Source of the DNA: Patescibacteria group bacterium
Lineage (GTDB): Bacteria; Patescibacteriota; Minisyncoccia; UBA6257; Colwellbacteraceae
DNA length: 64,000 nt
NCBI GenBank assembly: GCA_023380475.1
Contig: JAMCRD010000003.1
Location: 28,397-92,396 of the forward strand
Direction of reading: 5' to 3'
Shown piece after piece: positions 2,929-64,000 of this stretch (position 1 is its first letter; every line of letters starts with the position of its first letter). Both the position numbers and the translations under genes were made by a program. The notes below the pieces were generated by a model. The model searched no databases and was not told the DNA's origin. It saw only the letters and a program-made list of their open reading frames with translations.

Positions 2929-3456
2929 ATGAGAGAACCTAGATTAACGGTAAAAGACGAGTTTAAAGACGAGACATTGGAAACAAGGCGTGTCACAAGG
3001 GTTATGGCTGGTGGGAAACGGTTCCGTTTTCGTTCGACTGTTGTTATCGGTGATATGAAAGGCAGAGTCGGTGTGGGCATTGGTAAAGGAGTCGATCTGC
3101 AGCAGTCCATTCAGAAGGCTAGGCATAATGCCAAGAAGAGCCTTATAAGTGTAGCTCTCAAAGAAAACACTATTCCTCACGAAACTTATGCCAAATTCAG
3201 CGCAGCCCGAGTTATCCTTAAACCCGCTCGTCTGGGGCATGGCTTGATGGCTGGAGGCGCTGTACGTATCGTCCTAAAGTTAGCTGGAATTCGTGATGCT
3301 ACAGCTAAATGTTTGGGTACTACCACTAATAAACTGACGACGGCTATGGCTACCATTAAAGCCCTTGAGTCTCTGAGTCTGCCTTACAGCAAGCTCTCAA
3401 ATGCAAAAGAAGGGTTGGTTGAATCGGCCAGCCAAGGTGATAAAGTGAAGGAATAA
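2929..3456 (+). CDS. rpsE: 30S ribosomal protein S5
   Basis: RRVTRVMAGGKRFRFRSTVVIGDMKGRVGVGIGKG shows the uS5 dsRBD and C-terminal domain pattern. Confidence 0.9.
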   Translation: MREPRLTVKDEFKDETLETRRVTRVMAGGKRFRFRSTVVIGDMKGRVGVGIGKGVDLQQSIQKARHNAKKSLISVALKENTIPHETYAKFSAARVILKPARLGHGLMAGGAVRIVLKLAGIRDATAKCLGTTTNKLTTAMATIKALESLSLPYSKLSNAKEGLVESASQGDKVKE

Positions 3457-3743
3457 TGCAGCTACATGATTTAAAACCTAGGCATGCCCGTTTTCTCAAG
3501 AAGCGTGTGGGTCGTGGCGGTAAGCGCGGGACTTTTTCTGGCAGAGGGACCAAGGGCCAGCGTGCTAGAGCTGGACATAAGATTCGTCCAGCCGAGCGAG
3601 ACTTTATCCAGCGCTTGCCTAAACTACGTGGTGTTGGCAATAGGACAAATGGTGTGAGCCAAGCCAGAGAGCTAATGCGGCAGCGTGCCAGACACCGTGC
3701 CTTGCGTATGGCTCGTAAGACCCCCCATGGAAAGAATTCTTAA
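3456..3743 (+). CDS. rplO: 50S ribosomal protein L15 (short, 95 aa)
   Basis: The N-terminus LKPRHARFLKKRVGRGGKRGTFSGRGTKGQ...RLPKLRGVG matches uL15. The C-terminal globular domain is absent, and it follows S5 directly with no L30 gene. Confidence 0.7.
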   Translation: MQLHDLKPRHARFLKKRVGRGGKRGTFSGRGTKGQRARAGHKIRPAERDFIQRLPKLRGVGNRTNGVSQARELMRQRARHRALRMARKTPHGKNS

Positions 3744-4998
3744 TATATTTAGGATAAAAGACCTGCGCAACAAGGTGCTGATAGTGGCAGGTCTCTTGGT
3801 GTGTTCACGAGTACTGGCAGCAATTCCTCTCCCAGGCATTCAGCAAGCTGCCCTGAAAAATTTGTTAGCCGGGAATCAATTACTTGGTTTTCTGAATATA
3901 TTCTCGGGTGGAGCTTTGTCGACCATGTCCATCGCCATGCTCGGTTTGGGGCCGTATATCACCTCTACCATCATCATGCAACTTCTAACAATGGTTTTCC
4001 CTTCATTGAAAGCCATGTATTACGAAGAGGGTGCAGTAGGTAGGTCTAAATTCAACCGTTATACCCGTTATCTGACGGTACCTCTAGCCGTACTACAGTC
4101 TTACGGTTTTCTGCGTTTGCTGGCTTCCCAAGGCGTGATCACTAATCTTAGCCTTGCTCAGGAGATTATAAACGTGATAGTAGCTACAGCTGGCTCGCTT
4201 GTCCTGGTGTGGTTTGGTGAATTGATAACCGAGCAGAAAATAGGCAACGGTATATCACTGCTTATATTTGCCGGCATAGTCGCTGGTTTACCGACATCTT
4301 TCAGGAATGCCATTCTTACTTACACTCCGGGATCTATGCCGTTCTACATATTATTCTTATTGTTGATACTGGCAGTCACTGCTGCCATGGTGCTGATGAA
4401 CGAAGGGGTACGTAAAGTTGCCGTTTCTTACGCTAAACGCATCCGCGGTAACAGGGTTTACGGCGGCGTGTCGACCTACCTGCCTCTGAAAGTAAACCAG
4501 GCCGGCATGATCCCGATCATATTCGCCATATCAGTACTACTGGTTCCCCAGTTTATAGGACAAGTGCTAGCTGGCTTTTCGACACATTTTGCCACGACGA
4601 TTAACAGCTGGGTCAATAGTTTTATGAACAATCAGCTGCTCTACGGCGTAGTTTATTTCGTTTTGGTATTTGCGTTTACTTACTTTTATACAGCTATCAC
4701 CTTCGATCCGAACGAAATTTCTAAGAACTTGCAACGAAGTGGGGGATTTATCCCTGGGCTGAGGCCTGGTGAACCAACAGCGCAATACCTCAGCAAAGTT
4801 ACGTCTCGGATAACCTTTTTTGGAGCGCTATTTTTGGGATTAGTAGCCATCTTGCCGCTGATTATTCAGGCTTTTACTCACACCCAATCTCTGACGATAA
4901 GTGGTGCAGCCATGCTGATCGTCGTTGCAGTGGCTCTTGAGGTAGCTCAGCAGATTGATTCACAGCTTACAGTTCGCGAATACGAGGGCATAAGGTAA
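3727..4998 (+). CDS. secY: preprotein translocase subunit SecY
   Basis: MERILNIFRIKDLRNKVLIVAGLLVCSRVLAAIPLPGI plus 10 TM segments, at the canonical position after L15. The track start at 3685 is probably too early. Confidence 0.9.
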   Translation: MERILNIFRIKDLRNKVLIVAGLLVCSRVLAAIPLPGIQQAALKNLLAGNQLLGFLNIFSGGALSTMSIAMLGLGPYITSTIIMQLLTMVFPSLKAMYYEEGAVGRSKFNRYTRYLTVPLAVLQSYGFLRLLASQGVITNLSLAQEIINVIVATAGSLVLVWFGELITEQKIGNGISLLIFAGIVAGLPTSFRNAILTYTPGSMPFYILFLLLILAVTAAMVLMNEGVRKVAVSYAKRIRGNRVYGGVSTYLPLKVNQAGMIPIIFAISVLLVPQFIGQVLAGFSTHFATTINSWVNSFMNNQLLYGVVYFVLVFAFTYFYTAITFDPNEISKNLQRSGGFIPGLRPGEPTAQYLSKVTSRITFFGALFLGLVAILPLIIQAFTHTQSLTISGAAMLIVVAVALEVAQQIDSQLTVREYEGIR

Positions 4999-40335: not shown

Positions 40336-41451
40336 TTATTCATACTGGATGAAACTAGGTTGAGGTGAAAGTTTCAGGATTTCTTCCGGCGTCATTAAGG
40401 CACTGCCAGGCTGCAGTACATCATTCTTGTAGAAAAGCTTGAAACCAGTAAATTGAATAGGCTTAGTTGCTACCACACCATCGTAGGTTTTTATCTTCTG
40501 AGCTTGCGTACCAAAACCATCCATATCCATAACAATCTCTACCTGAGGCAATGGTTTAATCTTATCCCAGTTCGTAACCATCTGATTAGTGAATATGTGA
40601 ATAACCAGTATCTTCGGCGGCAAATTATTTTCTTTAACAATCTGCGCTAGATATTGTGCAGCATAATTAATATCTGCAGCATCCATAGTGCCTATCCTTG
40701 TACCTGGATAACCACCATCACGCATAGAGAATTCTGGATCGAGTGCTAGCTCGACTTGAGATAGCTTCAAATATTTTGCAAGTAACGGTAATTCGGTTTC
40801 GACAGCACTTAAACCAATTTGTACGTCCAAGACAACAAGCCCATTGACACTTTCAGCCAAACTTATAGCTTTATCAATCTGGCTCGACGGCATTCGTAGG
40901 CTATACAACCCATCCGACCCAGGGGTATTCTGCGCAGCGACAGCAATATAGTCTATAGCTGGTATAACTGGCGTTGAGGTATCCACCGCTTGCCACTCAT
41001 CGACCGCATTTTTAAGCATGCTAATCATCTGACCGGGGGGATATTCGCCCAATACTCCCATCTGCTTAGAATAGAAATTACCGTAATAAGCAACGATCCT
41101 GCTAAACGGTAAAATGGCACCTCCCAACGGGTATACCGTTTTGACTGGCCAAGAACTCGGCGTCGAGGTTGCTACAAGCTCTGTAGATGTAGTAGAGGAT
41201 ACAGTAGATGAAGCGATCGCAATCCTAACATAGTGAATTGGGATATTAGCTAACTCTTCCAATTTTGCATTATAGGCAGCTATATCTAAAGGTGGATAGG
41301 TAAATGGAATCGAAGTGGCTTGTTTGGGAACATCTTTGCCGTCGCTTAATACAAACATTGGTTGATAGTAGATAAACGTTGCAGCCACGGCTACAAACAA
41401 CAAAATTCCAAAAACAATAAAGGCTTGCCTTACCCTACTTTTACTCTTCAC
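40336..41451 (-). CDS. membrane-anchored secreted protein (hypothetical)
   Basis: N-terminal TM ILLFVAVAATFIYY plus a 340-aa extracytoplasmic domain of unrecognised family. Confidence 0.45.
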   Translation of the reverse strand: MKSKSRVRQAFIVFGILLFVAVAATFIYYQPMFVLSDGKDVPKQATSIPFTYPPLDIAAYNAKLEELANIPIHYVRIAIASSTVSSTTSTELVATSTPSSWPVKTVYPLGGAILPFSRIVAYYGNFYSKQMGVLGEYPPGQMISMLKNAVDEWQAVDTSTPVIPAIDYIAVAAQNTPGSDGLYSLRMPSSQIDKAISLAESVNGLVVLDVQIGLSAVETELPLLAKYLKLSQVELALDPEFSMRDGGYPGTRIGTMDAADINYAAQYLAQIVKENNLPPKILVIHIFTNQMVTNWDKIKPLPQVEIVMDMDGFGTQAQKIKTYDGVVATKPIQFTGFKLFYKNDVLQPGSALMTPEEILKLSPQPSFIQYE

Positions 41452-41509
41452 CTTATTTTCCGAATTATTCTGATCCAGGGGTCTTTAATTTACACAATAA
41501 TTGACCTTG

Positions 41510-41581
41510 CTGCGGGGCTAGGAGTCGAACCTAGAATTCCTGCTCCAAAGGCAGGCGTGTTACCAATTGCACCACCCCGCA
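41510..41581 (-). tRNA. tRNA-Gln (anticodon UUG)
   Basis: The reverse complement UGCGGGGUGGUGCAAUUGGUAACACGCCUGCCUUUGGAGCAGGAAUUCUAGGUUCGACUCCUAGCCCCGCAG folds as a cloverleaf. It has U1-A72 and G73 (Gln identity elements), a TTCGA T-loop and a CUUUGGA anticodon loop. No CCA is encoded. Confidence 0.8.
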
Positions 41582-51404: not shown

Positions 51405-52682
51405 ATGGTTCGTAAAATCATCCATAGCAGAGAAATGGCCAAGTTCCTGACCGCGACGGTTCTGCTGGTTAATCTCGCTACGCCTTTTACAGCGGCAGCT
51501 CAAACCGTGACGACTCAACCCACAGCTGCCTCCACCGCATCCCTGCAATCCGAGATCGACGCCAACAATCAGGCAATAGCTAACCTAAATGCACAGATAG
51601 CCCAGTATCAAGCTGAGATCCAGCAGGCTGGAGAAAACAAGAAGACTCTTCAGGCAGCCATCAATTCCCTCAACCTGCAACGCAAAAAGATACAAACACA
51701 AATATACGTCACTAAAGCCCAGATTAGTACCACCAACATCCAGATCCAGCAACTCGGCGACAGTATAGCCAGCACTACACAGATAATCGCCTCCGAGCAG
51801 GAAGCACTAGCCGCAGATATGCGTCTCTTAGAACAAGCTGATAATCAGGAACCACTAGCGATAATATTGTCTTCCGGCACTCTAGACCAAGCCTGGACCA
51901 ACGCTAACGCGGCTCTTCAAATTCAGGAAGCGATTCAAGAAAAGATGACTGCACTTAGGGCTCAAGAAGATAGCCTTACGACTTCCCAAACTGCTTCCCA
52001 AGTTAAACAGGCGACGCTTTCTTCACAGCAACAAACCCTGACCAAACAACAGCAGACCCTGACTGATACAGAAAAATCTAAGACTCGGCTGTTGTCCGAA
52101 ACGAACGCGCAAGAGTCCGTGTATGAACAACTCCTTGCCTCAGCCGAAGAGCAACTCAACAGCATTTCAACATTTTCAAAAAACGCTGGGGGATCAGGAA
52201 TCCTAGGAGATCAAACCCGATGCGATGCTTGGGGGTGCTATTATAACCAGCGCGATGCCGCCTGGGGCAGCGATCCGCTGGACGGCACGAGCTATACTCT
52301 CGCCAGCGATGGTTGCCTAGTAACTTCGGTGGCCATGGTCCTGACTCACTACGGCTATCACAATGTCACACCCGTGACTATAAATACCAACCCCAACAAC
52401 TTTGCGCCATACTTCCCAGCTTATTTGCTGACCACCATAAACGTTGATGGGACTACAGTCACCAGAGTCAGAGCGGCGATTGATGCCACACTGGCCACCG
52501 GTAACCCGGTGATAGTTGGCTTGCATGCCTACGGCGGCACCCACTTTGTAGTTTTGGTGAGCGGCAGCAAGGGTAATTACATCATGCGCGACCCATACAT
52601 AGAAAACGGCGACAATATTCTATTTGCAGATCACTATTCCCTAAGGAGCGTCTTTGCGGTAACCAAGGTACAAATAAGCTGA
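51405..52682 (+). CDS. secreted coiled-coil protein with a C-terminal C39-like cysteine peptidase domain (PcsB-like architecture)
   Basis: A signal peptide, about 230 aa of Q/A-rich coiled-coil, then DGCLVTSVAMVLTHYGY and HAYGGTHFVVLVSG (a Cys/His papain-like pair). Confidence 0.5.
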   Translation: MVRKIIHSREMAKFLTATVLLVNLATPFTAAAQTVTTQPTAASTASLQSEIDANNQAIANLNAQIAQYQAEIQQAGENKKTLQAAINSLNLQRKKIQTQIYVTKAQISTTNIQIQQLGDSIASTTQIIASEQEALAADMRLLEQADNQEPLAIILSSGTLDQAWTNANAALQIQEAIQEKMTALRAQEDSLTTSQTASQVKQATLSSQQQTLTKQQQTLTDTEKSKTRLLSETNAQESVYEQLLASAEEQLNSISTFSKNAGGSGILGDQTRCDAWGCYYNQRDAAWGSDPLDGTSYTLASDGCLVTSVAMVLTHYGYHNVTPVTINTNPNNFAPYFPAYLLTTINVDGTTVTRVRAAIDATLATGNPVIVGLHAYGGTHFVVLVSGSKGNYIMRDPYIENGDNILFADHYSLRSVFAVTKVQIS

Positions 52683-52719
52683 TTTCCCATTTAAGACTAT
52701 ATATGCTATACTCTGTCAA

Positions 52720-52872
52720 ATGGGTTTGCAGACGCTGATAAACAATGTGACATCCACCGCTGCTACCATAATTGGTCCGGCCAAAACTATTCTCGTGTCT
52801 GTAACTCAGATCATCGTACAGATATTGCAATACATTGTTTACCTTCTTAATTTACTGATATCTAAGCTATAG
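52720..52872 (+). CDS. small hydrophobic peptide (50 aa, hypothetical)
   Basis: MGLQTLINNVTSTAATIIGPAKTILVSVTQIIVQILQYIVYLLNLLISKL, followed by a terminator. It is not in the ORF track. Confidence 0.25.
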   Translation: MGLQTLINNVTSTAATIIGPAKTILVSVTQIIVQILQYIVYLLNLLISKL

Positions 52873-52891
52873 CAAGATACCTACAAATAAC

Positions 52892-52920
52892 AAAACAGTC
52901 CTCCAAGAGGGGACTGTTTT
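52892..52920 (+). terminator. rho-independent terminator
   Basis: aaaacagtcctccaagaggggactgtttt. Confidence 0.7.
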
Positions 52921-52940
52921 TAGTATGGTATGATAAACCA

Positions 52941-53618
52941 ATGTTCACTCCTATAAGGAAAGTAAACGGGATATCTTATGAAAGAATAGCTGTTAAGACA
53001 CATCTGATAAGATTCGGGGAAAATCTTATAGGACTCCTCAAAAAATATGTTTCACCTGTTTTGAAGCCGGGGGATTGGTTAGCACTTTCTGAAAAAGTTG
53101 TGTCGGTAACGCAAAACAATATCCGCCATATTTCGACTGTAAAAGTTAGTTGGCTAGCCAAATTGATTGTGAGGGGAGTGAAGAAATACCCCGATGACAA
53201 AGGATGGGACAATCCTGAGAAAATGCAGGTAGCAATAGAAATGGCTGGTTATCCAAGAGCTATCCTAGCAATGTTGCTCGGCGGCATCGGGAAGGTGTTC
53301 CATATCCGTGGCATCTTCTGGACTGTCTTAGGGCACCGCGCTGGAGAACTTGATGGCTTCAATCCAGTGGTTCTTCAACCGTATCGAGAAAACGTCGCTC
53401 TACCGCCATCGCATCCAAGAGAAATGTGCGAAAGGATTGAACGAGAATTGGGCGCACCGGCAGTGATCATAGACGGCAATAACATCAATGTTAAAGTCAT
53501 CGCGATGAGCCACGGCATGCCAGTAAACACTAAGTTCGCTAGATTGGTGCTCTTGGACAATCCCATGGGGCAGGAAGATGAACTAACCCCCTTCATAATT
53601 GTGCGTAAGAAAGATTAA
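52941..53618 (+). CDS. CofE-like (F420-0:gamma-glutamyl ligase family) protein, putative
   Basis: KPGDWLALSEKVVSVTQNN and IIDGNNINVKVIAMSHG resemble the CofE-fold pattern. The match is modest. Confidence 0.35.
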   Translation: MFTPIRKVNGISYERIAVKTHLIRFGENLIGLLKKYVSPVLKPGDWLALSEKVVSVTQNNIRHISTVKVSWLAKLIVRGVKKYPDDKGWDNPEKMQVAIEMAGYPRAILAMLLGGIGKVFHIRGIFWTVLGHRAGELDGFNPVVLQPYRENVALPPSHPREMCERIERELGAPAVIIDGNNINVKVIAMSHGMPVNTKFARLVLLDNPMGQEDELTPFIIVRKKD

Positions 53619-54226
53619 TGATAATCACCTGGGCCGGCGTAAAGCCTATTTTTGCCATTCTCAGTTTGATCACCACCTTATGGGCTGTACTCCCGTATCT
53701 ACGCGACATATTTCTCAAAAAGACGAAGCCCCATGCTTACACTTGGTTGATCTGGACCATAACCCAAGGCACTGCCGCCGCTGGATTGATATATGGCAAG
53801 GGAGGATGGGGAGGCTTAGAACTGGTTGTTGGTACGGCATTGGTATTCATAATATTTCTTCTGTCTCTAAAATATGGCACACGCAGTATAACTAAAAGTG
53901 ACACCGTGGTGCTCATATTCGCGCTGCTAGCGATTGTAATATGGTGGCAATTACATAACCCGTTCCTTGCCGTGATCATGGTGTCAGCCATAGATTTTGC
54001 CGGCTATATACCAAGTTTCAGAAAAACATTTTATGAACCATGGACCGAGACACCATCTTCTTGGGCAATATTCTCGTTGGGCAATATTTTAAACATACTT
54101 GCTCTCAGCCAATATAATTTCCTGACGCTTACTTATCTTATTACGATTATTATTGCTAACGCAGTACTCTTGGCGGTCTGTCTTATAAGGAGACAAGTTG
54201 TACTCCCTGACGCACCTACTAAATAG
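53618..54226 (+). CDS. polytopic membrane protein (hypothetical)
   Basis: A 202-aa protein with 6 TM helices. Its start overlaps the stop of the CofE-like gene (ATGA). Confidence 0.45.
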   Translation: MIITWAGVKPIFAILSLITTLWAVLPYLRDIFLKKTKPHAYTWLIWTITQGTAAAGLIYGKGGWGGLELVVGTALVFIIFLLSLKYGTRSITKSDTVVLIFALLAIVIWWQLHNPFLAVIMVSAIDFAGYIPSFRKTFYEPWTETPSSWAIFSLGNILNILALSQYNFLTLTYLITIIIANAVLLAVCLIRRQVVLPDAPTK

Positions 54227-54494
54227 GGGACTTATCTCAACAACCCATTCGGATTTTATATTTACGAAACTCCACGCAGATCTTTTCAGTTCAATTTACT
54301 TTTTCAGAATGTTATGTTGAGCTAACGTTGCTCATCCACATCGGCACGCCTCGCTGACTCTGCTAGAATAGCTACAGGGGAGCAGGTTAAGAACCTAATA
54401 TCAATCGTCGTATAATGGCTTTTATACGGCAAATTGCCCAAAAGAAAGCCACTTCTACTCCCCCCTAGGACAACTTAACACGAATATATGCCAT

Positions 54495-54520
54495 CCCGAC
54501 CTGAAAAGGTCGGGTTTCTT
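54495..54520 (+). terminator. terminator-like hairpin at the left edge of the phage region
   Basis: cccgacc-tgaaaa-ggtcggg followed by tttctt. Confidence 0.5.
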
Positions 54521-54545
54521 GGTTTAGAAAGGAAAAAACAATAAG

Positions 54546-54668
54546 ATGGATCGCAACAAAGTCAAGCAGCTAATCGGAGGGCTTACCTTCCTAGCTGCCT
54601 TTTTAATTCTTTCGTACGGTCTGCTGGTCGAGTTGGCAATTCTTAACGCAAGATGGTCTGTAAGATAA
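54546..54668 (+). CDS. small single-TM protein (40 aa; holin-like, speculative)
   Basis: MDRNKVKQLIGGLTFLAAFLILSYGLLVELAILNARWSVR, preceded by aaagga as an RBS. Confidence 0.25.
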   Translation: MDRNKVKQLIGGLTFLAAFLILSYGLLVELAILNARWSVR

Positions 54669-54895
54669 AGGAAAAGTCCAACCTGTGCATCCACGGCTAT
54701 ACCTATGGATATTGCCCAGGGGGGTGCACGCAGTTCGTCGATACAAGGGAATATCTCAAAGAAAAGCGCCGAGAGTTCCTGAAGTTATGGGGTCCCAAAG
54801 ACTGGACTGACCCTATGACCAAAAAAACAATTTGTCTCAGATTAGTTAATTACGACAGATTGATCCGGATGGCGCCAGGAGTCGAAGCAAATTAA
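54653..54895 (+). CDS. hypothetical Cys-containing small protein
   Basis: An 80-aa ORF carrying CIHGYTYGYCPGGC, with no recognisable family. Confidence 0.35.
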   Translation: MVCKIKEKSNLCIHGYTYGYCPGGCTQFVDTREYLKEKRREFLKLWGPKDWTDPMTKKTICLRLVNYDRLIRMAPGVEAN

Positions 54896-55019
54896 CAACG
54901 GTCTCAATCGGGAGGGATGCGATCCCCCTCTAAGCGCTTCATAAGAGTGCCGGGAAGACTAGGAAGTTTAATCGGAGACGGTTGGCTTCCTCTCTCCCGA
55001 TTACCAAGATTAAAAGCAA

Positions 55020-56012
55020 ATGAAAACATACACATACGAACCAACAAAACATCCTAGGCTCTTTCGCGTGGTAGACCGCGAGGGGAATTGGGAAAGGTAT
55101 TTCCTGACCGACCTTGTACCTGAAAAGGGCCGAGAAATATCGACCATGGGCGGAGTTTATCTTCGTGGCGTTACTACCATCCTTGATAAGGGATACGCCA
55201 AAGGAGAAGGTCTGTTACGCTTTCTGTCGCAGCATACCGAATCGGAAAGAGATGAGATCCTAAAGTCGGCTGGCGAGAGAGGTGACAAAGTTCACCGCGC
55301 TATTGCCATGCTCAGCGAAGGCTTAGGAACTCTCAACAAAACCGATGGGGTCTATAACCGTGAGATCAAAGAATACGAACCCTTGAGCAATGAGGAATGG
55401 GATTGTCTATTGGCTTTTGAGAGTTTTTGGAGAAGGCACGAACCGATAGTGTTGCAATCAGAAGCACCACTCTATTCGTTGGAAGGAGGGTACGCTGGGA
55501 CAGCCGATAAGATTTGGATCTTAACGAAAGCCTGTGATGTCAAGATGTGCCCTTGCAAGGACTGGATAAACCTCATCGGTCTGAACGATTACAAGACCAG
55601 TTCTGGTATTTACCCGAGCTACTGGGCTCAAGTCGGAGCCTACGCTAAAGCTGAGAACATCAAAGAGTATCTCCCAACGGGCAGAGTGATTGACTACACC
55701 TCGATCCTGCGGCTTGGCACAAACCACAAAACAACGGGAGGTTATGAGTTTCGGGTCAGCAACAGGCTCGGGGCTCAATATGAGTTGTTTGGGGCAGCCA
55801 AGACGATAGCCAACTATGAGAGCAATGAGTTCGATCCCTCCAAAGAGGTTCAAGAAATTCCTGATTCAATCACCATTGAATTGAAAAAGATGCCGGAGTC
55901 CGTCGAAACTCCCAAAGTCGAAAAGAAAAATGGAAAAGGTAAAAGAAATCAACCAAAAGCTGGGCGTAGTGCCAAAGCTAAGGCTGGGCACGCAGCAACC
56001 AGCCAAAAGTAA
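55020..56012 (+). CDS. RecB-family PD-(D/E)xK nuclease (phage-type exonuclease)
   Basis: GDKVHRAIA (motif I His), GTADKI (D), LNDYKTS (DxK) and QVGAYAKA (QxxxY). The C-terminal tail is K-rich. Confidence 0.55.
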   Translation: MKTYTYEPTKHPRLFRVVDREGNWERYFLTDLVPEKGREISTMGGVYLRGVTTILDKGYAKGEGLLRFLSQHTESERDEILKSAGERGDKVHRAIAMLSEGLGTLNKTDGVYNREIKEYEPLSNEEWDCLLAFESFWRRHEPIVLQSEAPLYSLEGGYAGTADKIWILTKACDVKMCPCKDWINLIGLNDYKTSSGIYPSYWAQVGAYAKAENIKEYLPTGRVIDYTSILRLGTNHKTTGGYEFRVSNRLGAQYELFGAAKTIANYESNEFDPSKEVQEIPDSITIELKKMPESVETPKVEKKNGKGKRNQPKAGRSAKAKAGHAATSQK

Positions 56013-56421
56013 GGACGGCAAGATCTACAACGCCATTGTTCCTAATGGTCCGCATCGATTAAAGTTTTTGGACGAACCAGTCGTCATTATAGCTAACATC
56101 AACGGTAAACCTGGGAAGGTCTTGAAATTCACAGTCGAAGAGAACGGCCAGAAGTTTCGTTGGATAGTAAAAATACTAAACGCCGAGGGACAGCCCAATT
56201 ATCTATTGGAACATCTTGAGCCTGTTATGGTCGGCGAGGAAAGAATAGTGGAGATGAAAAACAAGGGCGCTCGCAAGTTCATCGAGATCAGGAAGGTTGG
56301 AGAGGAATCAGCCTCGGAGGATGAAACCGATGAGATAGTCGATTACAAGGAGGATGAGGGATTGTCCGAAGACGAACTCAACGAGATGAGTCGCAGGGCC
56401 AAAGAAGATCTGAAAGAATGA
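55930..56421 (+). CDS. hypothetical phage protein with an acidic C-terminus
   Basis: A 163-aa ORF overlapping the nuclease gene by 83 nt in another frame. Its true start may be a downstream non-ATG codon. Confidence 0.35.
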   Translation: MEKVKEINQKLGVVPKLRLGTQQPAKSKDGKIYNAIVPNGPHRLKFLDEPVVIIANINGKPGKVLKFTVEENGQKFRWIVKILNAEGQPNYLLEHLEPVMVGEERIVEMKNKGARKFIEIRKVGEESASEDETDEIVDYKEDEGLSEDELNEMSRRAKEDLKE

Positions 56422-56603
56422 AAGCCTATCTCATACAAATTGAAGTGCGTCTTTCCTCCAAATCATATTTTCAGACACTGGGAGAGTCGCGACAGAATTG
56501 CAGCTCAGCGGAGACCGCCTCCAGTAGGGCTTTGAGAGAACTCAGACATGAATTGAAAGGTCGGAGGATAGCCGAGTACAAGATCCATATCACCAAGTGC
56601 TAG
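56418..56603 (+). CDS. hypothetical small protein
   Basis: A 61-aa ORF with an ATGA overlap with the upstream gene. Confidence 0.25.
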   Translation: MKAYLIQIEVRLSSKSYFQTLGESRQNCSSAETASSRALRELRHELKGRRIAEYKIHITKC

Positions 56604-56702
56604 TTATCTGACTGGGGCGTCCGGGCCAGATTAAGATCAACACTCCAAGTATCTCGATCTCATCGGCGTCTTGGTCAAGGAGAATAAGCAAAAGGGGAAG
56701 CG

Positions 56703-57185
56703 ATGTACTACATAAATATATCAAACGGTCTGCTTAAAGATTCCCACCGTACAAGGATGGGAGAGGCTATTTGGGAGTTCATGTGGTTATTGGATCGTAT
56801 GACTAGCGAGAGCGAGGATGGCATAGGGAAAGTCTTGGGGGGCAGGCCGATAAAGATTGATGAAATAGCCTGTGGATTTCCTGTGCATAGGACAACGGTG
56901 ATCCGCAATCTCAAACGCTTGGAGAATGAAGGATACATCAACGTTATTCGGGCTCCTTACGGATTAGTGATAACTGTGAATAAAGCCAAGAAAAAGCTAG
57001 TGAGAGATGTTGCGAGTTTGCACAGAGATATAGCGGATACGCAACATCTAATTAGATATAGCAAAGACGCAACATCTAATAATACTAAACACTACTTAAC
57101 AAAGACTAAACAGTCGGCACGCCCTGCGGGCGTCGATGTTAAACCCCTTGAAGGCGTAAGAGGGGGAGGATTAAGGCATATATGA
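56703..57185 (+). CDS. winged helix-turn-helix DNA-binding protein (phage regulator or replication-organiser-like)
   Basis: GFPVHRTTVIRNLKRLENEGYINVIR is a classic wHTH, followed by a basic tail. Confidence 0.5.
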   Translation: MYYINISNGLLKDSHRTRMGEAIWEFMWLLDRMTSESEDGIGKVLGGRPIKIDEIACGFPVHRTTVIRNLKRLENEGYINVIRAPYGLVITVNKAKKKLVRDVASLHRDIADTQHLIRYSKDATSNNTKHYLTKTKQSARPAGVDVKPLEGVRGGGLRHI

Positions 57186-57279
57186 ACCAAATGCCCGAAA
57201 AATACGTTACGGGCAGTTAACAAAACTCTAGGCGGTTCGTCGATGCCGATTAATCAAGAATCAAAAGTCAAAAAACAAA

Positions 57280-57756
57280 ATGAACAAAAACGACATAAAC
57301 AACAACTGGGTAGAAATAGGATACAAGCAAATCCCCCAAAAGGTTTTCGACAAATACGGAGTCAAGCCGTTCGAGATAATGAAACGGAAGATGCGCAAAA
57401 AAGAGGGTCAAGTCTGGAACCTCATCTCTTACAATGACGCCAAAGAAGAAGCCGAGCGACGGGGCTGCCGTCTTCCCTCCGTTCAGGAGATGCTGGTACT
57501 GCTCGAATGGTACAAGCACGAGAAGGGGAACAAGGCGAATATCAGAGACAATCAATTTCTGGGCATAGAGGAGCTTTCATATAAGGAGTTTGTCTATCTG
57601 GAATGGGTGGAAGGACTAATTCCGTACCTTCGCGGTGGCGATTGGGGTAATGGCTCGGGTGGTGGGCCGTTCACGTTGAACCTGGATTGGGGCGCGGGCA
57701 CTACGAGCACCTATGTGGGTTTCCGCTGTGCCCGCAGCCGTAGAAATCCGAAATAA
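57280..57756 (+). CDS. FGE-sulfatase (SUMF1-like) domain protein, short form
   Basis: GCRLPSVQEMLVLLEW resembles RLPTEAEWEYA. YLRGGDWGNG and the C-terminal VGFRCARS are the family hallmark. Confidence 0.5.
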   Translation: MNKNDINNNWVEIGYKQIPQKVFDKYGVKPFEIMKRKMRKKEGQVWNLISYNDAKEEAERRGCRLPSVQEMLVLLEWYKHEKGNKANIRDNQFLGIEELSYKEFVYLEWVEGLIPYLRGGDWGNGSGGGPFTLNLDWGAGTTSTYVGFRCARSRRNPK

Positions 57757-57763
57757 AACGAAG

Positions 57764-58153
57764 ATGGAGCTTAAATTGACCCAACACGACATAATCAGGA
57801 ACTACCTCGACGGGAAGGGATGGGTGTACGAGTACAAAATCCGAGGGCTGGACACCGAGTGGGGCTTCATCGGGGCCAGAGGGGACAGGGACGTAAGGCA
57901 GATGATAAGGAACGGGGAACTGGAAGCCTCCTTTAACGGCAAATACCGAATAGTCAGATTGAAAAGGTCGCCGAGTCCAAGAGAACTAGCGGATGAACTC
58001 AACCAAGAAATTGAGGAGAAAGGCGGACAGGTTGTGGCAGATAAAATGCCAAGCCCTATCAAAGAGGTGTCTGGTATGCGGACGGCCGACGCAGGTATGC
58101 CATCACTTTTTCCCGAAGAGCATAGCGGCATCTCTTCGCTACGACATTTCTAA
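57764..58153 (+). CDS. hypothetical phage protein
   Basis: MELKLTQHDIIRNYLDGKGWVYEYKIRGLDTEWGF... It overlaps the HNH gene by 160 nt in another frame. Confidence 0.3.
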   Translation: MELKLTQHDIIRNYLDGKGWVYEYKIRGLDTEWGFIGARGDRDVRQMIRNGELEASFNGKYRIVRLKRSPSPRELADELNQEIEEKGGQVVADKMPSPIKEVSGMRTADAGMPSLFPEEHSGISSLRHF

Positions 58154-58370
58154 CGGCGTTCCGTTATGCAACGTTTGCCATTTCAAGCTGCACAACGGAG
58201 ACCCCACCGTGGGGGCGAAGATACTGGAATTGAGGGGAGCAAAATGGCTGGAGGGATTGGAAGAGCGGCGCAAGGGGAAGGTCAGACCGACGGTGGGATA
58301 TTTCGAGAAAGTCATCGCCGACCTGTCTAACGAGACTGACGAGAAACAAAGAAAGGACAAAGAAAAATGA
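57993..58370 (+). CDS. HNH endonuclease
   Basis: CLVCGRPTQVCHHFFPKS...NGVPLCNVCHFKLH is a CxxC...HH...N...CxxC...H HNH Zn-finger nuclease motif. Confidence 0.65.
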   Translation: MNSTKKLRRKADRLWQIKCQALSKRCLVCGRPTQVCHHFFPKSIAASLRYDISNGVPLCNVCHFKLHNGDPTVGAKILELRGAKWLEGLEERRKGKVRPTVGYFEKVIADLSNETDEKQRKDKEK

Positions 58371-58522
58371 AACAAAAAATGAAGAGGCTCACGGTGTGGG
58401 TAACGACGGAGAATCTGAAGCAGCTCGCCAAACTCGCCAGGGAGTCCAACAAGTCTCGGGTAATCAGGGGTTTAATCGTAAAGGCCGCAGGTGGGGGTTC
58501 CCAGTCGGAAAAGGTACGGTAA
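58367..58522 (+). CDS. ribbon-helix-helix (CopG/Arc-like) small DNA-binding protein
   Basis: MKQKMKRLTVWVTTENLKQLAKLARESNKSRVIRGLI follows the beta-alpha-alpha RHH pattern. Its ATG overlaps the HNH stop (ATGA). It is not in the ORF track. Confidence 0.45.
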   Translation: MKQKMKRLTVWVTTENLKQLAKLARESNKSRVIRGLIVKAAGGGSQSEKVR

Positions 58523-58562
58523 AGACAAAAACAAAAGAGATGGACGATAATAAATTAGAAAA

Positions 58563-59009
58563 ATGAGGCAAATTAAATCAGCATTGGGAGAAGTATTGAA
58601 ACTCCTCAACAAGTCCTATAAAGATCAGGAAATCCGTGTTTGCGACAACTGTGGAGTCCCATTGATATGGACTTTTTGTTGGGCGTATCGCGAGAGATAC
58701 TGTCTCAACTGTGGGATAAGTGGCGCAATGCTGGGGACTGGCGAAGATGTGGAATTAACCAGCGAATTGAAGTATGAGGCAAGGGTGATAGATGACATCT
58801 GGAAAGCAATCTACAAAAATCTAGTGCCGCGTTCATCTTACAAACGGAATGGATGTAAGAAGTGTGAGGGAGAAGATCATAACAAACACCTCTCAAGGTC
58901 CGAAATTTTTAGAGATAAAACAGCGACGGAAATTCTCAAAAAATTAGCGGAGGGCTTCACCGTTAAAAGAGAAATTTTAGAAAGAGGATTATATCAGGGA
59001 CAAGTTTAG
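58563..59009 (+). CDS. zinc-ribbon hypothetical phage protein
   Basis: CDNCG...CLNCG plus CKKCEGEDH suggest two Zn-binding knuckles. Confidence 0.35.
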   Translation: MRQIKSALGEVLKLLNKSYKDQEIRVCDNCGVPLIWTFCWAYRERYCLNCGISGAMLGTGEDVELTSELKYEARVIDDIWKAIYKNLVPRSSYKRNGCKKCEGEDHNKHLSRSEIFRDKTATEILKKLAEGFTVKREILERGLYQGQV

Positions 59010-59042
59010 GAACTGTCCGGAAAACATAATTAAGCCGAAAGG

Positions 59043-59249
59043 ATGGTAAAAACCGTTTACGGCATGAAATCTAAAATGACCGACCAAGAGTTCAAGGAAA
59101 AATGTGAGAAACATAGGGAAAAGCTTAAGGTGCTATTGAACTCCGGCTTCTTTGAGCTCAAAAATACCAAGGTCGAGGTGAACTTCGGGCCAAAGGGAGA
59201 GATAGGGGATTGGTCTATTGTCCGGCAGAGTGTGTACAAACGACCATGA
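59043..59249 (+). CDS. hypothetical small protein
   Basis: A 68-aa ORF with no motif. Confidence 0.25.
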   Translation: MVKTVYGMKSKMTDQEFKEKCEKHREKLKVLLNSGFFELKNTKVEVNFGPKGEIGDWSIVRQSVYKRP

Positions 59250-59340
59250 ATATGCTATAATACTCAAAACTGAATAAGTAAAAGTCCCAAGCGATAATAA
59301 GCCGGACATCTCGCAATGAGGTGGCCGGTATTTCATTTTT

Positions 59341-59778
59341 ATGGGAGCACCAAAGGGAAATCAATACGCAAAAGGAAATAAGGGAGGGCGCCCTCCGAAA
59401 GTAGAGCCGCAAAATCTTCCCGCGTTCGGTGAAGAACTGGTGTCATGGGCAACTCGGAAATACCAGACGCTTCTTTCGGCGCCCGACAAGGAGGCAAAAA
59501 TGCCCTTCTTCATCAAGACGTTCTGTCGGGAGTATAAAATATCGGAAGACACGCTCCAAGCGTACAGGGAGGCAAATAAAGAGTTTTCCGCCTCGTATAA
59601 GCAGGCAAGACAGATTATTGCTGAAGCACTCATGGTTGGAGCACTCAAGGGATGGTGGCATCCGACCGCTTTTATCTTCATCGCCAAGAATGAAACCGAA
59701 ATGAGAGATAACTCGTCGGTTGATCTCACATCGGGCGGAGAAAAGATTACGGTCAACCTGGTCGAATTCAAAAGATGA
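59341..59778 (+). CDS. terminase small subunit
   Basis: MGAPKGNQYAKGNKGGRPPK is an N-terminal signature common to phage TerS HTH domains. It sits upstream of terL. Confidence 0.55.
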   Translation: MGAPKGNQYAKGNKGGRPPKVEPQNLPAFGEELVSWATRKYQTLLSAPDKEAKMPFFIKTFCREYKISEDTLQAYREANKEFSASYKQARQIIAEALMVGALKGWWHPTAFIFIAKNETEMRDNSSVDLTSGGEKITVNLVEFKR

Positions 59779-60314
59779 AACTCTCGGTTTTAATCTGTTC
59801 TTTGTCTTCACGAGGCGAGCATCTCGCCAAGTTGCTTTCGATCTTGTTTCCCCAAATTCAGGAGGAGACTGAAATTATCGTTTCCATTGACGACGGAGGA
59901 CAAAAAATAGGTGTCAAACGCAATAGGTTGATGGCATCGGCACTGGGCCAGTATGTCTGTTTTATCGATGACGATGACGAGGTGAGCGACGACTATATTG
60001 CCCAGATTATGACCGGCATCGAATCCGGTGCCGACCACGTGGCAATAGGCGGCATTATGACGACGAATGGCAGAGAACCACACGAATTCAGAAGCTCGAA
60101 GGATTATGTCTGGCATGAAAAAGACGGCGTCTATTATCGCGGCGTCCAGCATCTGGGAGTGATTAAGCGTGATCTGGTACTTCAATGTCCCTTCCCTCCG
60201 ATCAGTTTCGGGGAAGACCGCGAATTCAGCGAGAGGGTAACGCCGCTAATCAAGACAGAGTACCAAATCCAAAAGCCGATTTACTTCTATCGATACCGGA
60301 ACCCGAAATGCTGA
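59775..60314 (+). CDS. family 2 glycosyltransferase (short, 179 aa)
   Basis: LSVLICSL...EIIVSIDDGGQ...YVCFIDDDDEV shows the GT-A fold with a DxD motif. Confidence 0.6.
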   Translation: MKLSVLICSLSSRGEHLAKLLSILFPQIQEETEIIVSIDDGGQKIGVKRNRLMASALGQYVCFIDDDDEVSDDYIAQIMTGIESGADHVAIGGIMTTNGREPHEFRSSKDYVWHEKDGVYYRGVQHLGVIKRDLVLQCPFPPISFGEDREFSERVTPLIKTEYQIQKPIYFYRYRNPKC

Positions 60315-60964
60315 GTGTCATAATGCCGGTCTATAATCACGTTCTCTACACCTATCGGGCCGTAGAGTCGCTCCTTGAACACACTGCTGCGCCAGCTAGG
60401 CTCATTATGATTGACGATGGCTCGACCGATGATACGCATGATTACGCTATGGAACTTTCGGATCGGCTGAAAGAGAGATTTTATTATGGCCGAAACCAAA
60501 AGAATGAGGGTGTCCACTACAGCTGGAATGCAGGACTACGCGCCGCTTTCGACCAGAATTCAGATTATATCGCCATTGTGAATAACGATGTCCTCTTCAC
60601 AAAGAACTGGGATTCGCCCCTCATCAATGCCCTAAAAACGAAGAAGCTTGTGAGTCCATATCATACGGATGGCTCATTGCCGGATGATTGGCCGTCCGGG
60701 AGCCGCAGGATTGCGAACCAGGGTAACTTGCCGATTCTGGGCGCTTGTTTCATGGCACAAACGCAGACATTCAGGGATGTGGGCTTTTTCCCCGAACAAA
60801 TGCGGTACTACTTCGGAGACAACTGGCTGGTGCGACAGGTCGGGGAACAGCAATGTACCCAGGTGCCCGAAAGCTACATCCATCACTATTTCTCGAAAAC
60901 AACGAGTGAACTTCAGAATGATTTTTGGTTCAAAAAAGACCAAGAAGAATACTTGCGGCTATGA
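60308..60964 (+). CDS. family 2 glycosyltransferase
   Basis: MLSVIMPVYNHVLYT...LIMIDDGSTDDT...YIAIVNNDVLF. Its ATG overlaps the upstream stop, and its own stop overlaps the terL ATG. Confidence 0.65.
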   Translation: MLSVIMPVYNHVLYTYRAVESLLEHTAAPARLIMIDDGSTDDTHDYAMELSDRLKERFYYGRNQKNEGVHYSWNAGLRAAFDQNSDYIAIVNNDVLFTKNWDSPLINALKTKKLVSPYHTDGSLPDDWPSGSRRIANQGNLPILGACFMAQTQTFRDVGFFPEQMRYYFGDNWLVRQVGEQQCTQVPESYIHHYFSKTTSELQNDFWFKKDQEEYLRL

Positions 60965-62241
60965 CAATTCAATTCCCCACCCAAGAATTTATCGACTCTA
61001 TACGACCTTACCAATCCGAGTACCTTTCGTCTCCCCAGAAGAATAACGTGCTTATGTGGCACAGAGGCAGCCGCAAGACCACGACACTGCTCCAAAAATT
61101 GCTTATTTCAGCGCATCGCGAGGTTGGTCTCTACTGGTATATCGGGCCCTATCTTACCCAGGCGCGATCGACGATATGGACAGACCCAGCAACGCATATT
61201 TTCCGATGGATACCATCGGACTATCTGAAGCGGTTACGCGTCAATAACAGCGAGATGTCGATAACATTCCCGAACGGAAGCGTCTTGCAGGCCAAGGGAA
61301 TGGACAATCCGAATGGACTCCGTGGCCCTAAACCGAAGGGGGTTGTGCTCGACGAATACGGTGAAATGGCGAAGCGGTGGGGCAGCGAACCTCGTGAAGC
61401 CATCATTGAGCCGTCCATGCTCTCGTCGGGGGGCTGGACTGACTACGCGGGGACGCCGAAAGGAAACAATGATCTTGCGCACCTTTTACGGCGGCAGGAT
61501 TATTTCGCGTCTCTCAAAACAGTCGAAGATACGGGTGTGTATTTGCCGGAGCAGATTGAGGAATTGAAGCGGAATGCCGTCAATATAGATTTCTTTTGGC
61601 AAGAATACTACTGCAAAATCATCGAGGGAGCCTCAAGCGTTTTCAAAGACATCGAGAATGCCGTCTCGGGAGAACTGGAGAAGCCGCAGAGTGGCGAGGA
61701 GTATCTTTTTGGAATTGATTTAGCGCGGAGTTTTGACGCGACTGTCCTCGTCGGTTTCAAAATATCCACCAATCATCTCGTGTACTACGAGAGGATAAAA
61801 GATAGAACGTGGGAAGCGCAGAAAAACCTCATCGCCGGTACGCTCGCTTCGTACCATGGCGCGCGGGCTATTGTTGACGCAACGGGTGTGGGCGATAGTT
61901 TCACAGAAGAGTTGATGAGGATGGGACTCAATATCATGCCTCTTAAGATCGCCAATAACCTCATTAAGCGGAATCTGGTCGAAAAACTCGGTTCTTACCT
62001 TGAAAACAGATACATCACCATTCCCAGCATTCAAGAAATGATTGACGAATTGAAAAATTACGAGTATGTGCTTACGGCAAGTAACAATATCGTTTACTCG
62101 GCCCCATCCGGCAAGCACGACGATGTCGTAATGGCGTTGGCGCTGGCAGTTTCAGCTCTCAATCCCACGCCTTTCGTTGTTTCCCAAAATGCTTTTGTTC
62201 CGCCGGTTACTATCGACCCCAGAACGGGTTATATTGTATGA
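60961..62241 (+). CDS. terminase large subunit
   Basis: Walker A-like HRGSRKTTTL and Walker B VVLDEYGE sit in the ATPase domain. The nuclease domain carries FGIDLA...DDVVMALALA. Confidence 0.7.
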   Translation: MTIQFPTQEFIDSIRPYQSEYLSSPQKNNVLMWHRGSRKTTTLLQKLLISAHREVGLYWYIGPYLTQARSTIWTDPATHIFRWIPSDYLKRLRVNNSEMSITFPNGSVLQAKGMDNPNGLRGPKPKGVVLDEYGEMAKRWGSEPREAIIEPSMLSSGGWTDYAGTPKGNNDLAHLLRRQDYFASLKTVEDTGVYLPEQIEELKRNAVNIDFFWQEYYCKIIEGASSVFKDIENAVSGELEKPQSGEEYLFGIDLARSFDATVLVGFKISTNHLVYYERIKDRTWEAQKNLIAGTLASYHGARAIVDATGVGDSFTEELMRMGLNIMPLKIANNLIKRNLVEKLGSYLENRYITIPSIQEMIDELKNYEYVLTASNNIVYSAPSGKHDDVVMALALAVSALNPTPFVVSQNAFVPPVTIDPRTGYIV

Positions 62242-62432
62242 ACGAAGAACTACGTTGCAAATTATGCGGTAAATTGTTGGGCAAGGGATTGCAGTTAGGG
62301 GGCATTGTAGCCATCAAGTGCCATCGGTGCGGTACCATCACGGAGTTCGGGAATAAAATCGTCCACTATATCGTTCGTACCGAAGCGGGCGAGGAGTTAG
62401 GGCTCTTGACACTGAAAAATAAAAAGATATAA
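62238..62432 (+). CDS. Mu Com-like zinc-finger protein
   Basis: LRCKLCGKLLGKG...IKCHRCGT parallels Mu Com (IRCKNCNKLL...IRCPRCK). It has an ATGA overlap with the terL stop. Confidence 0.6.
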   Translation: MNEELRCKLCGKLLGKGLQLGGIVAIKCHRCGTITEFGNKIVHYIVRTEAGEELGLLTLKNKKI

Positions 62433-62433
62433 T
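62406..62433 (+). promoter_or_regulatory. consensus sigma70 promoter TTGACA-N16-TATAAT
   Basis: cTTGACActgaaaaataaaaagaTATAATga has a -10 box overlapping the com-like stop codon. Confidence 0.5.
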
Positions 62434-62468
62434 GACAATATAAAATAATAAGTTTTGAGTGCCTTTGA

Positions 62469-62491
62469 GCGCCAGAAGTGGCGCTTTTTTT
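62469..62491 (+). terminator. rho-independent terminator hairpin in the leader of the portal gene
   Basis: gcgcca-gaag-tggcgc followed by ttttttt. The T-tract runs into the portal ATG at 62489. Confidence 0.65.
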
Positions 62492-64000
62492 GTTGTATGA
62501 AAAAACCATCGGCACAAGAAATACTCAATCAATTTCGCATCGAGAAACAGGCAGCCTCGAAGACTCGGCAGTCGAAGATGTCCCATTGGCTCCAAAATGA
62601 GGAGCTTCACAATGGCGTTATTCAGCGAACTCTTTTGACGAAATCAAATCTTCATGTCCCGAAAGTGTTTGAGGGGGTACAAGATATGGCGTCCCGTCTC
62701 GGGGAGTTACCGACTATCGAATACGACACAAAGCCGGAAGGCGATGAAAATGCAGCAGATCTCATGAAGCATCTGTTCTTGTATGACGGCAGGAAATCAG
62801 ATTTGGAACACTTATGGGAACTGTCAAAAATCGAAGCGGGTCTCTATGGGCGTCCCATTTACAAACTGTTTCCATCACCGAACGGCGTCGCTTTCCAGCT
62901 TATCGATACGATGAGTTTTCTCATTTCTCCGCTTTCGCCGACGATAGATTCCGCGCTTTATTGCGGTCAGCAATTCATCTATAAGACGGCAGCGCAGCTG
63001 ATGGAGGAGGCCGAAGAATACGGTTACGACAAGAAAGAGGTGATGAAGGCTCGCAAAGCCGTGGCCGAAACCATCTCATCGGAAAATCCGGAAGTGAGCC
63101 AGCGCAACCTGCGGCTTGCCTATCTCGGTTTTGACAATGTGAACCTCGCAGGAGCGAAAGTCATCGAACTCACGGAATGGTACACGCATCTTGTGAACGA
63201 AAAGGGGTTGCCGGAAAAATATCTTCTCACCGTCGCGAACGACCAGTTCCTGCTTCGCGCCATTCCGATAACTGAAGCGGGGTTTGAGGATAAATTCCCG
63301 TTTATTTCGCGGGCGCTTTTCCCGCGTCTCGTCTCGTTCTGGGTTCCGTCAGTCGCGGATATCTATCGCGATCCGAACTTGGCGATGGATGTGATTATGA
63401 ATCAGAACATCGACAATAATACCTACCGCAATTTCGGGATGCTCTTTGTCGATTCGGCCAGCGGTCTCAAGCAATCCGCTGTCGTTCCGCGCCCCCTCGG
63501 CGTTGTACCGATCAATGTCGGAGCGAAATCGGTTAAGGACGCCGTGCTGCCATATAATCCGCCGGATATTTCGCAATCTACCGCCTTATCCAGCCAGATT
63601 GAAACGCTCTCTGACAATGCGGCCGGTCTCGGTTTCGTGCTTCCCATGGGACGGGCAAAAATGTCGGTCTCCCAATTAAACCTCGAAATGTCGCTCATTG
63701 AACAGCGATTAAGCACGTCAAAGATGAACCTCATCGCGATGGCAAAGGATATGGGCCAGATGTACGCCGATCTCATCAAGAAGAACCTTACGACTCCCCG
63801 GGCAGTCAAAACCTTCGGCATGAAAGACCTCACTATCTCAGGAGTTACGAAAGCGAACTTTAAGGGCGTTGACTTCATTGCAAAGGCGACTGCGAAGGAG
63901 AATGTCCAGCAAAACAAGGCGCTCTGGCAGAAATCAATTCAGGCTCTCTTCGCGATGTTCAAGGACGACCAGAACATCCCCAATCAGCGCTATCTCCGCG
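62489..64000 (+). CDS. probable portal protein (5' partial view; ORF continues past the window end)
   Basis: At least 504 codons are open from the ATG at 62489, in frame through base 64000. It lies immediately downstream of terL/com. The assignment is positional. Confidence 0.4.

Follow-up and report, generated by a model that had tools for sequence, protein, structure and literature searches.

The Com protein of bacteriophage Mu activates translation of mom, and Com homologues precede methyltransferase genes in FluMu and Pnm1. For 35 years Com has thus been something of a one-gene curiosity, known as a translational activator of Mu mom and a few methyltransferases. Protein-dependent switches between terminator and antiterminator structures are exemplified by the BglG/SacY/LicT-RAT (ribonucleic antiterminator), HutP and ANTAR systems. 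In the lambdoid PR′–tR′ arrangement, the phage protein Q is needed to pass a terminator that stands before the late morphogenesis genes. Here we analyze a com-like gene and its adjoining leader in a stretch of 64,000 nucleotides (nt) from a Patescibacteria group bacterium (assembly GCA_023380475.1, contig JAMCRD010000003.1, positions 28,397 to 92,396 of the forward strand), the whole of which is referred to below as the window. Between the large terminase gene and the portal gene of a prophage, the com-like gene is followed by a consensus promoter and by a putative Com-binding RNA site that shares nucleotides with a predicted intrinsic terminator. On evidence that is computational throughout, we consider Com-dependent antitermination of late structural operons to be the probable main effect of this arrangement, and hold this reading with moderate confidence.

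The com-like gene (62238–62432, + strand) encodes a protein of 64 amino acids (aa) that begins MNEELRCKLCGKLLGK...IKCHRCG... and combines a CCCC zinc ribbon (C7, C10, C28, C31) with a conserved C-terminal extension. A preliminary description of this DNA had recognized a Mu Com-like pattern in an open reading frame (ORF) at these coordinates, and database comparisons bear it out. The protein matches PF10122 (Zn_ribbon_Com) in Pfam with 27.2 bits, where the gathering cutoff is 22.9, matches the PHROG families "translational regulator" and "gpCom," and shares 13 of 27 residues over the zinc ribbon with Mu Com (BLASTP, E = 6e-6). The alignment with Mu Com shows no variation at R6, C7, C10, L14, C28, and C31, and the signature of the family, RCxxCxKLL ... 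I-x-C-x-RC in an N-terminal CCCC ribbon, is present. By its sequence, then, the protein is a genuine member of the Com family and a predicted RNA-binding zinc ribbon. The subfamily to which it belongs is rare, with ~11 clusters among 5.8 billion proteins, and no solved structure of a Com relative was detectable by sequence search. Although the gene is the least conserved DNA of the region, the ORF is really coding and under purifying selection, since the proportion of nonsynonymous differences between lineages (pN 0.18–0.19) lies far below that of synonymous differences (pS 0.60–0.85; dN/dS ~0.18).

What Com recognizes has been defined by systematic evolution of ligands by exponential enrichment (SELEX) on a Com zinc finger, which yielded a bipartite motif of two 5′-GAG(N)2CC-3′ copies (Nowacka et al., 2019; PMC6483171). 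The binding centre, CC(N)2-3GAG, lies in a loop of 6 nt that is closed by a C-G pair at the top of a short stem, and the native Mu target is the 19-mer 5′-GAAUGCCUGCGAGCAUCCC-3′ (PMC6483171), a sequence checked here against that of Mu. Starting 25 nt after the com-like stop codon, the window holds a perfect copy of the bipartite motif, GAGUGCC-UUU-GAGCGCC (62457–62473, + strand). The predicted hairpin (62459–62472, −4.8 kcal/mol) pairs G3-C16, U4·G15, G5-C14, and C6-G13 around the loop CUUUGA, with the 4-base-pair (bp) stem and 6-nt loop of the Mu mom operator and one compensatory change relative to Mu, from A3-U16 to G3-C16. The strict bipartite motif occurs twice in 72.4 kilobases (kb), against 0.24 occurrences in shuffled sequence. 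Covariation was assessed in 42 distinct sites 3′ of Com genes, collected with a pattern that carried no complementarity requirement. Their stems pair at 111 of 126 positions as compared with 81 ± 3.5 after partner shuffling (0 of 2,000 shuffles reach 111), using pair types that include UG/CA, UG/CG, CG/CG, AA/UU, and GG/UC. Given both the motif sequence and this family-wide covariation of the stem, the site at 62457–62473 is in all likelihood a Com operator, the cognate bipartite hairpin that members of the family carry beside the gene. No Rfam family reaches its gathering score in 52000–64000, and in 62200–62700 only chance-level Rfam matches appear at E up to 10.

Upstream of the operator lies a predicted promoter whose −35 hexamer TTGACA (62406–62411, + strand) falls within the com codons L-T and whose −10 hexamer TATAAT (62428–62433, + strand) contains the com stop codon TAA. 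This TTGACA-16-TATAAT element matches the consensus at 12 of 12 positions and is the sole such match on either strand of 72 kb, where chance would supply ~0.035 per 64 kb. It displays the hexamers, a spacer in the 16–18 nt range, and the coding-independent conservation of a sigma-70-type promoter, and standard −10 spacing would place the transcription start at ~62440. The predicted intrinsic terminator follows (62467–62491, + strand), consisting of a stem-loop (62467–62486) of 8 pairs, 5 of them G-C, with the loop GAAG, and a U-tract (62485–62491) that appears in the DNA as T7 ending at 62491. On the transcribed strand it thus has the GC-rich stem-loop and U-tract of its class, with a predicted energy of −13.5 kcal/mol (z = −3.6). 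Its 5′ arm, GAGCGCCA, is operator half-site 2, GAGCGCC(A). The small Com hairpin and the terminator share 62467–62472 and are therefore mutually exclusive.

The portal gene (62497–64000, + strand, continuing beyond the window; PF23899 SU10_portal, E = 3.8e-15) begins at an ATG 5 nt past the T-run and encodes 571 aa from this codon in contig L020. A public Logan call of 585 aa starts instead at TTG 62455. This start, given by one gene caller, would read through both operator and terminator. It was rejected since its frame is open in this lineage only, being interrupted by TGA in the L001 group, and the call is probably a mis-call. The preliminary description had placed a consensus promoter over the com stop codon and a strong terminator hairpin ahead of the portal gene, and had seen no mom-like gene following. 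All three observations stand, as do the coordinates given for them, except that the portal ATG lies at 62497 rather than 62498. The gene that follows com is the SU10-type portal, and neither mom nor a methyltransferase is called within the surrounding 20 kb.

The arrangement is kept well beyond this prophage. Every recovered locus with the Com module has the order terL, com, a gap of 60–105 nt, and portal, with com in the same position and the promoter, site, terminator, and ATG retained in ~10 diverged lineages. Despite near-saturated synonymous sites in com and portal, no variation is seen in the leader elements TTGAC, TATAAT, GAG(U/C)(G/A)CC, GAGCGCC, GGCGC (the 3′ arm), and the U-run. The TTGAC is unchanged in 10 lineages and in a second module described below, while the codons flanking it vary; the spacer between the hexamers is always 16–17 nt long and its sequence varies as well. 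In L012 and L013 the com stop codon has moved outside the −10 hexamer and TATAAT has been kept, so the −10 element is independent of coding. The preliminary description had suggested a search for conserved leader structure in related phages; besides the operator stem described above, the consensus terminator hairpin is found in 19 of 19 aligned modules, with a U-tract conserved after every hairpin. Any GC-rich arm would terminate equally, yet this arm is invariant, which suggests an extra constraint, in our view recognition by the protein. The loop appears to be free of such constraint: in L001, L003, and L006 the loop aligned with 62475–62478 has changed from GAAG to its exact reverse complement CTTC with the stem unchanged, so the loop sequence is unimportant. 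Template switching that inverted the hairpin loop seems a likely source of the change.

More distant relatives of the portal (45–52% aa identity) have neither the Com gene nor the terminator and keep the consensus promoter before portal. In three Com-less loci, L017 and L018 (~3740–3885) and L019 (~3027–3200), the slot between terL and portal is occupied by another small ORF of ~48–58 aa (...ILRE.KPFE...DQSG.AD.Y.VHRSQKI...), the 3′ end of which is overlapped by a consensus promoter without a terminator. Some loci also carry extra tandem TTGAC(T/A) copies just 5′ of the functional-looking −35 element, five in L222 (~240–300) and two in L013 (3882–3915).

A second promoter–Com site–terminator module, identified by motif scan, lies ~8 kb downstream of the first, outside the window, at L020 18298–18385 (window-equivalent ~70535–70622). 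It comprises TTGATT-16-TATAAT, GAGTGCC-GAT-GAGCGCC, the hairpin AGCGCC-GAAAA-TGGCGCT, AUUUUUAUU, and ATG, in that order, with the bipartite motif at L020 18339–18355 (window-equivalent ~70.6 kb). The module stands directly 3′ of tail-fibre-like genes and precedes a 249-aa ORF without a PHROG match. No com gene lies upstream of it; Com must therefore act there in trans, if at all. The two modules hold the only strong terminators of the structural region, and at both a promoter lies upstream of the terminator, so that the modules' own transcripts must cross it.

Com sites of this kind recur in other phages. Scanning IMG/VR with a 14-base motif was saturated by chance matches, and the matches were then filtered for a downstream T-run, a filter that biases the set towards terminators. 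Eleven distinct families were retained, of which seven carry a Com-like zinc-ribbon ORF directly upstream of the site; in a twelfth family, L346, the Com ORF lies 330 nt upstream. Among control terminators with a GAGCGCC arm and no first half-site, a Com ORF is nearby in 1 of 108, and that single case carries a bipartite site with a longer spacer. The association of Com genes with the bipartite site is accordingly strong (Fisher P = 5e-8, or 4e-6 without relatives of this phage). A very strict 23-base pattern recovered only 3 loci.

Searching from the Com side, with a 6-sequence Com alignment, revealed two classes. In a Mu-like class com contains the site and its tail extends into a methyltransferase gene, whereas in a short-Com class an intrinsic terminator follows com and its 5′ arm contains GA(G/A)NNCC. 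Common to both is that half-site 2 of the operator forms the 5′ arm of the inhibitory hairpin. The genes 3′ of the terminator-linked modules encode a head maturation protease, scaffold-like proteins, and TerL, in addition to the portal in the window. In L132, L057, and L346, phages that use Shine-Dalgarno (SD) sequences, predicted folds leave the SD and AUG unpaired, 15–45 nt past the terminator. The hairpin of these three thus does not serve to inhibit translation, and for the short-Com class the folds favour a transcriptional over a translational effect.

A different use of the site is predicted for L177 (1611–1670). Its Com site, GAGAACC-GUUUU-GAGUUCC, is nearly the same as RNA I of the SELEX study. 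The gene that follows encodes a major head protein, and its SD and AUG clearly pair with the 3′ half of the operator, so that translation of a capsid gene would be locked in the manner of Mu. Some phage contigs contain two Com sites, among them L114 (1389 and 5333), L041 (~2720 and ~2761), and L054, where a double Com site precedes a DNA methyltransferase-like gene without a terminator.

These features suggest the following course of events. The packaging operon would yield Com as its final product. Before it accumulates, transcripts from both the packaging operon and the internal promoter would fold the terminator and stop at ~62491, before the portal gene, the internal promoter alone yielding a terminated RNA of ~50 nt. 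Once accumulated, Com would capture the operator hairpin on the nascent RNA and hold nucleotides that the terminator needs, whereupon RNA polymerase would read through into the portal, capsid, and tail genes. The same protein would open module 2 in trans. We infer both the binding of Com at the operator and read-through as its result from the sequence, and translational activation of the portal gene possibly contributes. The preliminary description had taken a promoter immediately followed by a terminator as a sign of antitermination-controlled late expression and had raised the possibility of regulation in cis by the Com-like protein. Both ideas gain support from the Com site in the leader and its overlap with the terminator, from the conservation of this layout in ~10 lineages, from the duplication of the module before another gene, and from the recurrence of such sites beside Com genes in unrelated phages, with the regulatory outcome remaining inferred. 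The same description had named the circumstances that would speak for a plain operon terminator, namely a portal start elsewhere and a hairpin that simply ends the terminase operon; the ATG at 62497 is conserved, and the Com-site hairpin also occurs without an upstream com.

Several observations count against antitermination by Com. Experiment has established no mechanism for Com other than a translational one. The predicted stability of the terminator (−13.5 kcal/mol) greatly exceeds that of the Com hairpin (−4.8 kcal/mol), so that a switch between them would have to be kinetic and protein-driven. The terminator stem, whose 5′ arm is fixed, displays no covariation and is hence uninformative, and the small hairpin of L223 has A·C at one pair of its stem. 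Published binding studies disagree on whether Com prefers hairpin or duplex RNA. An AlphaFold2 model of the protein, built from a 14-sequence alignment, is of low confidence, with a predicted local distance difference test score (pLDDT) of 61.

The precedent of Mu makes it natural to ask whether Com acts here on translation only, opening a structure that masks the portal initiation region, with termination either incidental or constitutive and partial. The hairpin does end just 11 nt before the portal AUG, and the first 10 portal codons (62497–62526) are nucleotide-invariant in three lineages with near-saturated synonymous sites (P ~8e-6). Within them, GGCAC (62511–62515) is complementary to half-site 1, and in the predicted fold this long-range pairing encloses the AUG; GGCAC recurs 2 nt before the ATG of module 2, and the modelled lock of L177 provides an instance in which a Com site pairs with the SD and AUG of a structural gene. 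As a general feature, however, pairing between half-site 1 and the portal 5′ coding region was rejected, as its mean z over independent modules is −0.57; it appears specific to a sub-clade, where the predicted fold may add a translational layer. The portal start codon, moreover, lies outside the hairpin, the host has no SD sequence to mask, and the SD and AUG of L132, L057, and L346 are distant from the hairpin and unpaired. A U-tract is kept after every hairpin although a translational operator needs none. Translational activation as the only effect is consequently unlikely, if the most substantial of the alternatives. Com could also be a negative regulator that promotes termination or blocks translation by binding the leader RNA, thereby limiting the structural genes. 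The direction of the effect is not readable from sequence alone, and a preference of Com for duplex RNA is reported in one published study, but the small hairpin is a competitor of the terminator and not an aid to it, com shares its transcript with the terminase genes and would be expressed when structural proteins are required, and all characterized Com proteins are activators, so this role is quite improbable.

It may be asked, too, whether the locus requires Com at all. At an ordinary operon boundary the hairpin would end the terminase operon, the promoter would drive portal leakily, and the repeat would have no regulatory part. Terminators with a GAGCGCC arm are indeed common in phages without a nearby Com gene, and the single motif GAGNNCC is frequent, with 88 copies in 72 kb. 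The strict bipartite motif, by contrast, is confined to the two modules in 72 kb; both half-sites are invariant though any GC-rich stem would do, and the association of the bipartite site with Com genes (P = 5e-8) has no place in such a scheme. Since the promoter stands 5′ of the terminator at both modules, the terminators would also interrupt the transcripts of those very promoters. A plain boundary is therefore highly improbable. Action on DNA, whether as a lambda Q-like antiterminator at the promoter or as a repressor on the direct repeat, would agree with the NCBI product name of an identical protein ("DNA-binding transcriptional regulator"), with the resemblance of a strong promoter closely followed by a terminator to lambda PR′–tR′, and with a −10-like TATAAA just 3′ of the −10 hexamer. 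Yet the promoter spacer, the place for a Q-binding element, is not conserved, and no Q-family match was found among the neighbouring ORFs scanned in the window and L020. The repeat always lies on the transcribed strand 3′ of the start site, matches the RNA SELEX motif, and covaries as an RNA stem, making an effect through DNA very improbable.

The genes around the module place it in a packaging operon. The small terminase subunit gene terS (59341–59778, + strand; PHROG 606, E = 4.5e-9) is the first gene of this com-terminated operon, and the large subunit gene terL (60961–62241, + strand; Terminase_6N and Terminase_6C; PHROG 2, E = 7e-34) begins at ATG 60961 in a frame open from TTG 60925, with relatives called at 426 aa. 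ATGA overlaps join terS to the first of two intervening glycosyltransferase genes, the second of these to terL, and terL to com, where the com ATG overlaps the terL stop codon; from these junctions com is the translationally coupled last gene of the terS-GT2-GT2-terL-com operon, GT2 denoting a family-2 glycosyltransferase. A candidate promoter of the operon (59233–59261, + strand; TGTACA-17-TATAAT with extended TG, 10 of 12 consensus positions) presumably drives com expression. The glycosyltransferase pair (59775–60314 and 60323–60964) is kept in all related phage contigs and is unusual cargo for a packaging operon.

Bacterial chromosome, with genes such as PBP2, BipA, and GluRS, occupies the window from 1 to ~52.7 kb, and phage-like genes (exonuclease, DnaD-like loader, HNH/NinG nuclease, terS) begin at ~55 kb; the juxtaposition identifies the region as a prophage. 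NCBI assigns the identical Com protein to a Patescibacteria group bacterium. No close DNA relatives were found among GenBank phages, and no portal relatives among GTDB species genomes. SD sequences are not seen before host or phage genes, so a portal gene without one is not anomalous. Several host genes have TATAAT 7–12 nt 5′ of their ATG (gene starts 7787, 20024, 24874, and 46293). A sigma-70-type −10 element is accordingly plausible here, and mRNAs of the presumed Patescibacteria host may be leaderless or have very short leaders. The last host-like gene and the first phage gene are separated by ~800 nt, in which two promoter-like sites precede a strong terminator (CCCGACCTGAAAAGGTCGGG with a T-rich tail; ~54341–54514). 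These elements have no Rfam match and could belong to a small RNA or mark where a host operon ends next to the prophage. A tRNA-Gln (UUG) gene (41509–41581, − strand), ~13 kb from the left end of the prophage, adjoins a 371-aa ORF (40336–41451, − strand) without a Pfam match and is probably unrelated to prophage integration.

If Com-dependent antitermination is confirmed, it would add a very small system, with a protein of ~60 aa and a site of ~17 nt, to the known means of timing phage late genes. It would explain why Com-like ORFs occur inside head-morphogenesis modules, provide a predicted regulatory circuit in a phage of Patescibacteria, which are hard to culture, and supply a compact, portable switch for synthetic biology. 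A wider proposal, which we advance tentatively and rate slightly short of even, is that Com zinc ribbons form a general class of riboregulators of phage late genes, hitherto unrecognized, with Mu com-mom as one special case. Com would then bind GAG-NN-CC hairpins that overlap terminators or, in SD-using hosts, translation-inhibition hairpins; the hairpins it regulates would front portal, protease, scaffold, capsid, or terminase genes in many unrelated phages, this Patescibacteria prophage among them, and a minimal antitermination regulon would consist of one ~60-aa protein and several ~17-nt RNA sites per genome. No literature linking Com-like proteins to terminators, to morphogenesis or structural genes, or to antitermination was found in a search of incomplete coverage, which leaves room for a prior description.

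Placed beside Mu com-mom and its counterparts in FluMu and Pnm1, the locus has much in common with them. The protein in each is a small CCCC zinc ribbon from one Pfam family, encoded on the same transcript as an operator lying directly 3′ of or within com, and the operator consists of GA(G/A)-NN-CC half-sites that form a 4-bp stem and a 6-nt C...GA loop beside an inhibitory hairpin. Late-gene timing is a further point of likeness. The differences concern what is regulated and how. The target is a portal/structural operon and a second late unit, as opposed to a DNA-modification gene. The inhibitory hairpin of Mu is adjacent to the operator and holds the SD and start codon; its equivalent here is a U-tract terminator (U7) that shares operator nucleotides and ends before the AUG. 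Unlike in Mu, the 3′ end of com contains a consensus promoter, and the disordered tail of Mu Com is replaced by a conserved C-terminal extension that is probably structured. The protein belongs to the Com family, while the regulatory unit, differing in target and hairpin type, is not com-mom. What emerges is a Com–RNA recognition pair wired to terminators that appear to gate structural operons, at two sites in this prophage and in several unrelated phages.

With the BglG/LicT-type switches the locus shares a small hairpin whose 3′ strand overlaps the terminator 5′ arm and whose occupation by protein would give read-through. It differs from them in the fold of the protein, an unrelated zinc ribbon, in having no evident ligand or phosphorylation input, and in encoding the regulator directly upstream on the same phage transcript. 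Like the lambdoid PR′–tR′ region, it presents a strong, constitutive-looking promoter, a terminator within tens of nucleotides, and late morphogenesis genes next in line. Here, however, conservation falls on an element of the transcript that overlaps the terminator, not on the DNA of the promoter spacer, which differs in sequence between lineages, and no Q homologue was found among the neighbouring ORFs scanned; the position of the element implies local occlusion of the terminator as opposed to processive modification of RNA polymerase. By analogy, then, the unit would work like the BglG/LicT-type switches and fill the niche of lambda Q, while being homologous to neither.

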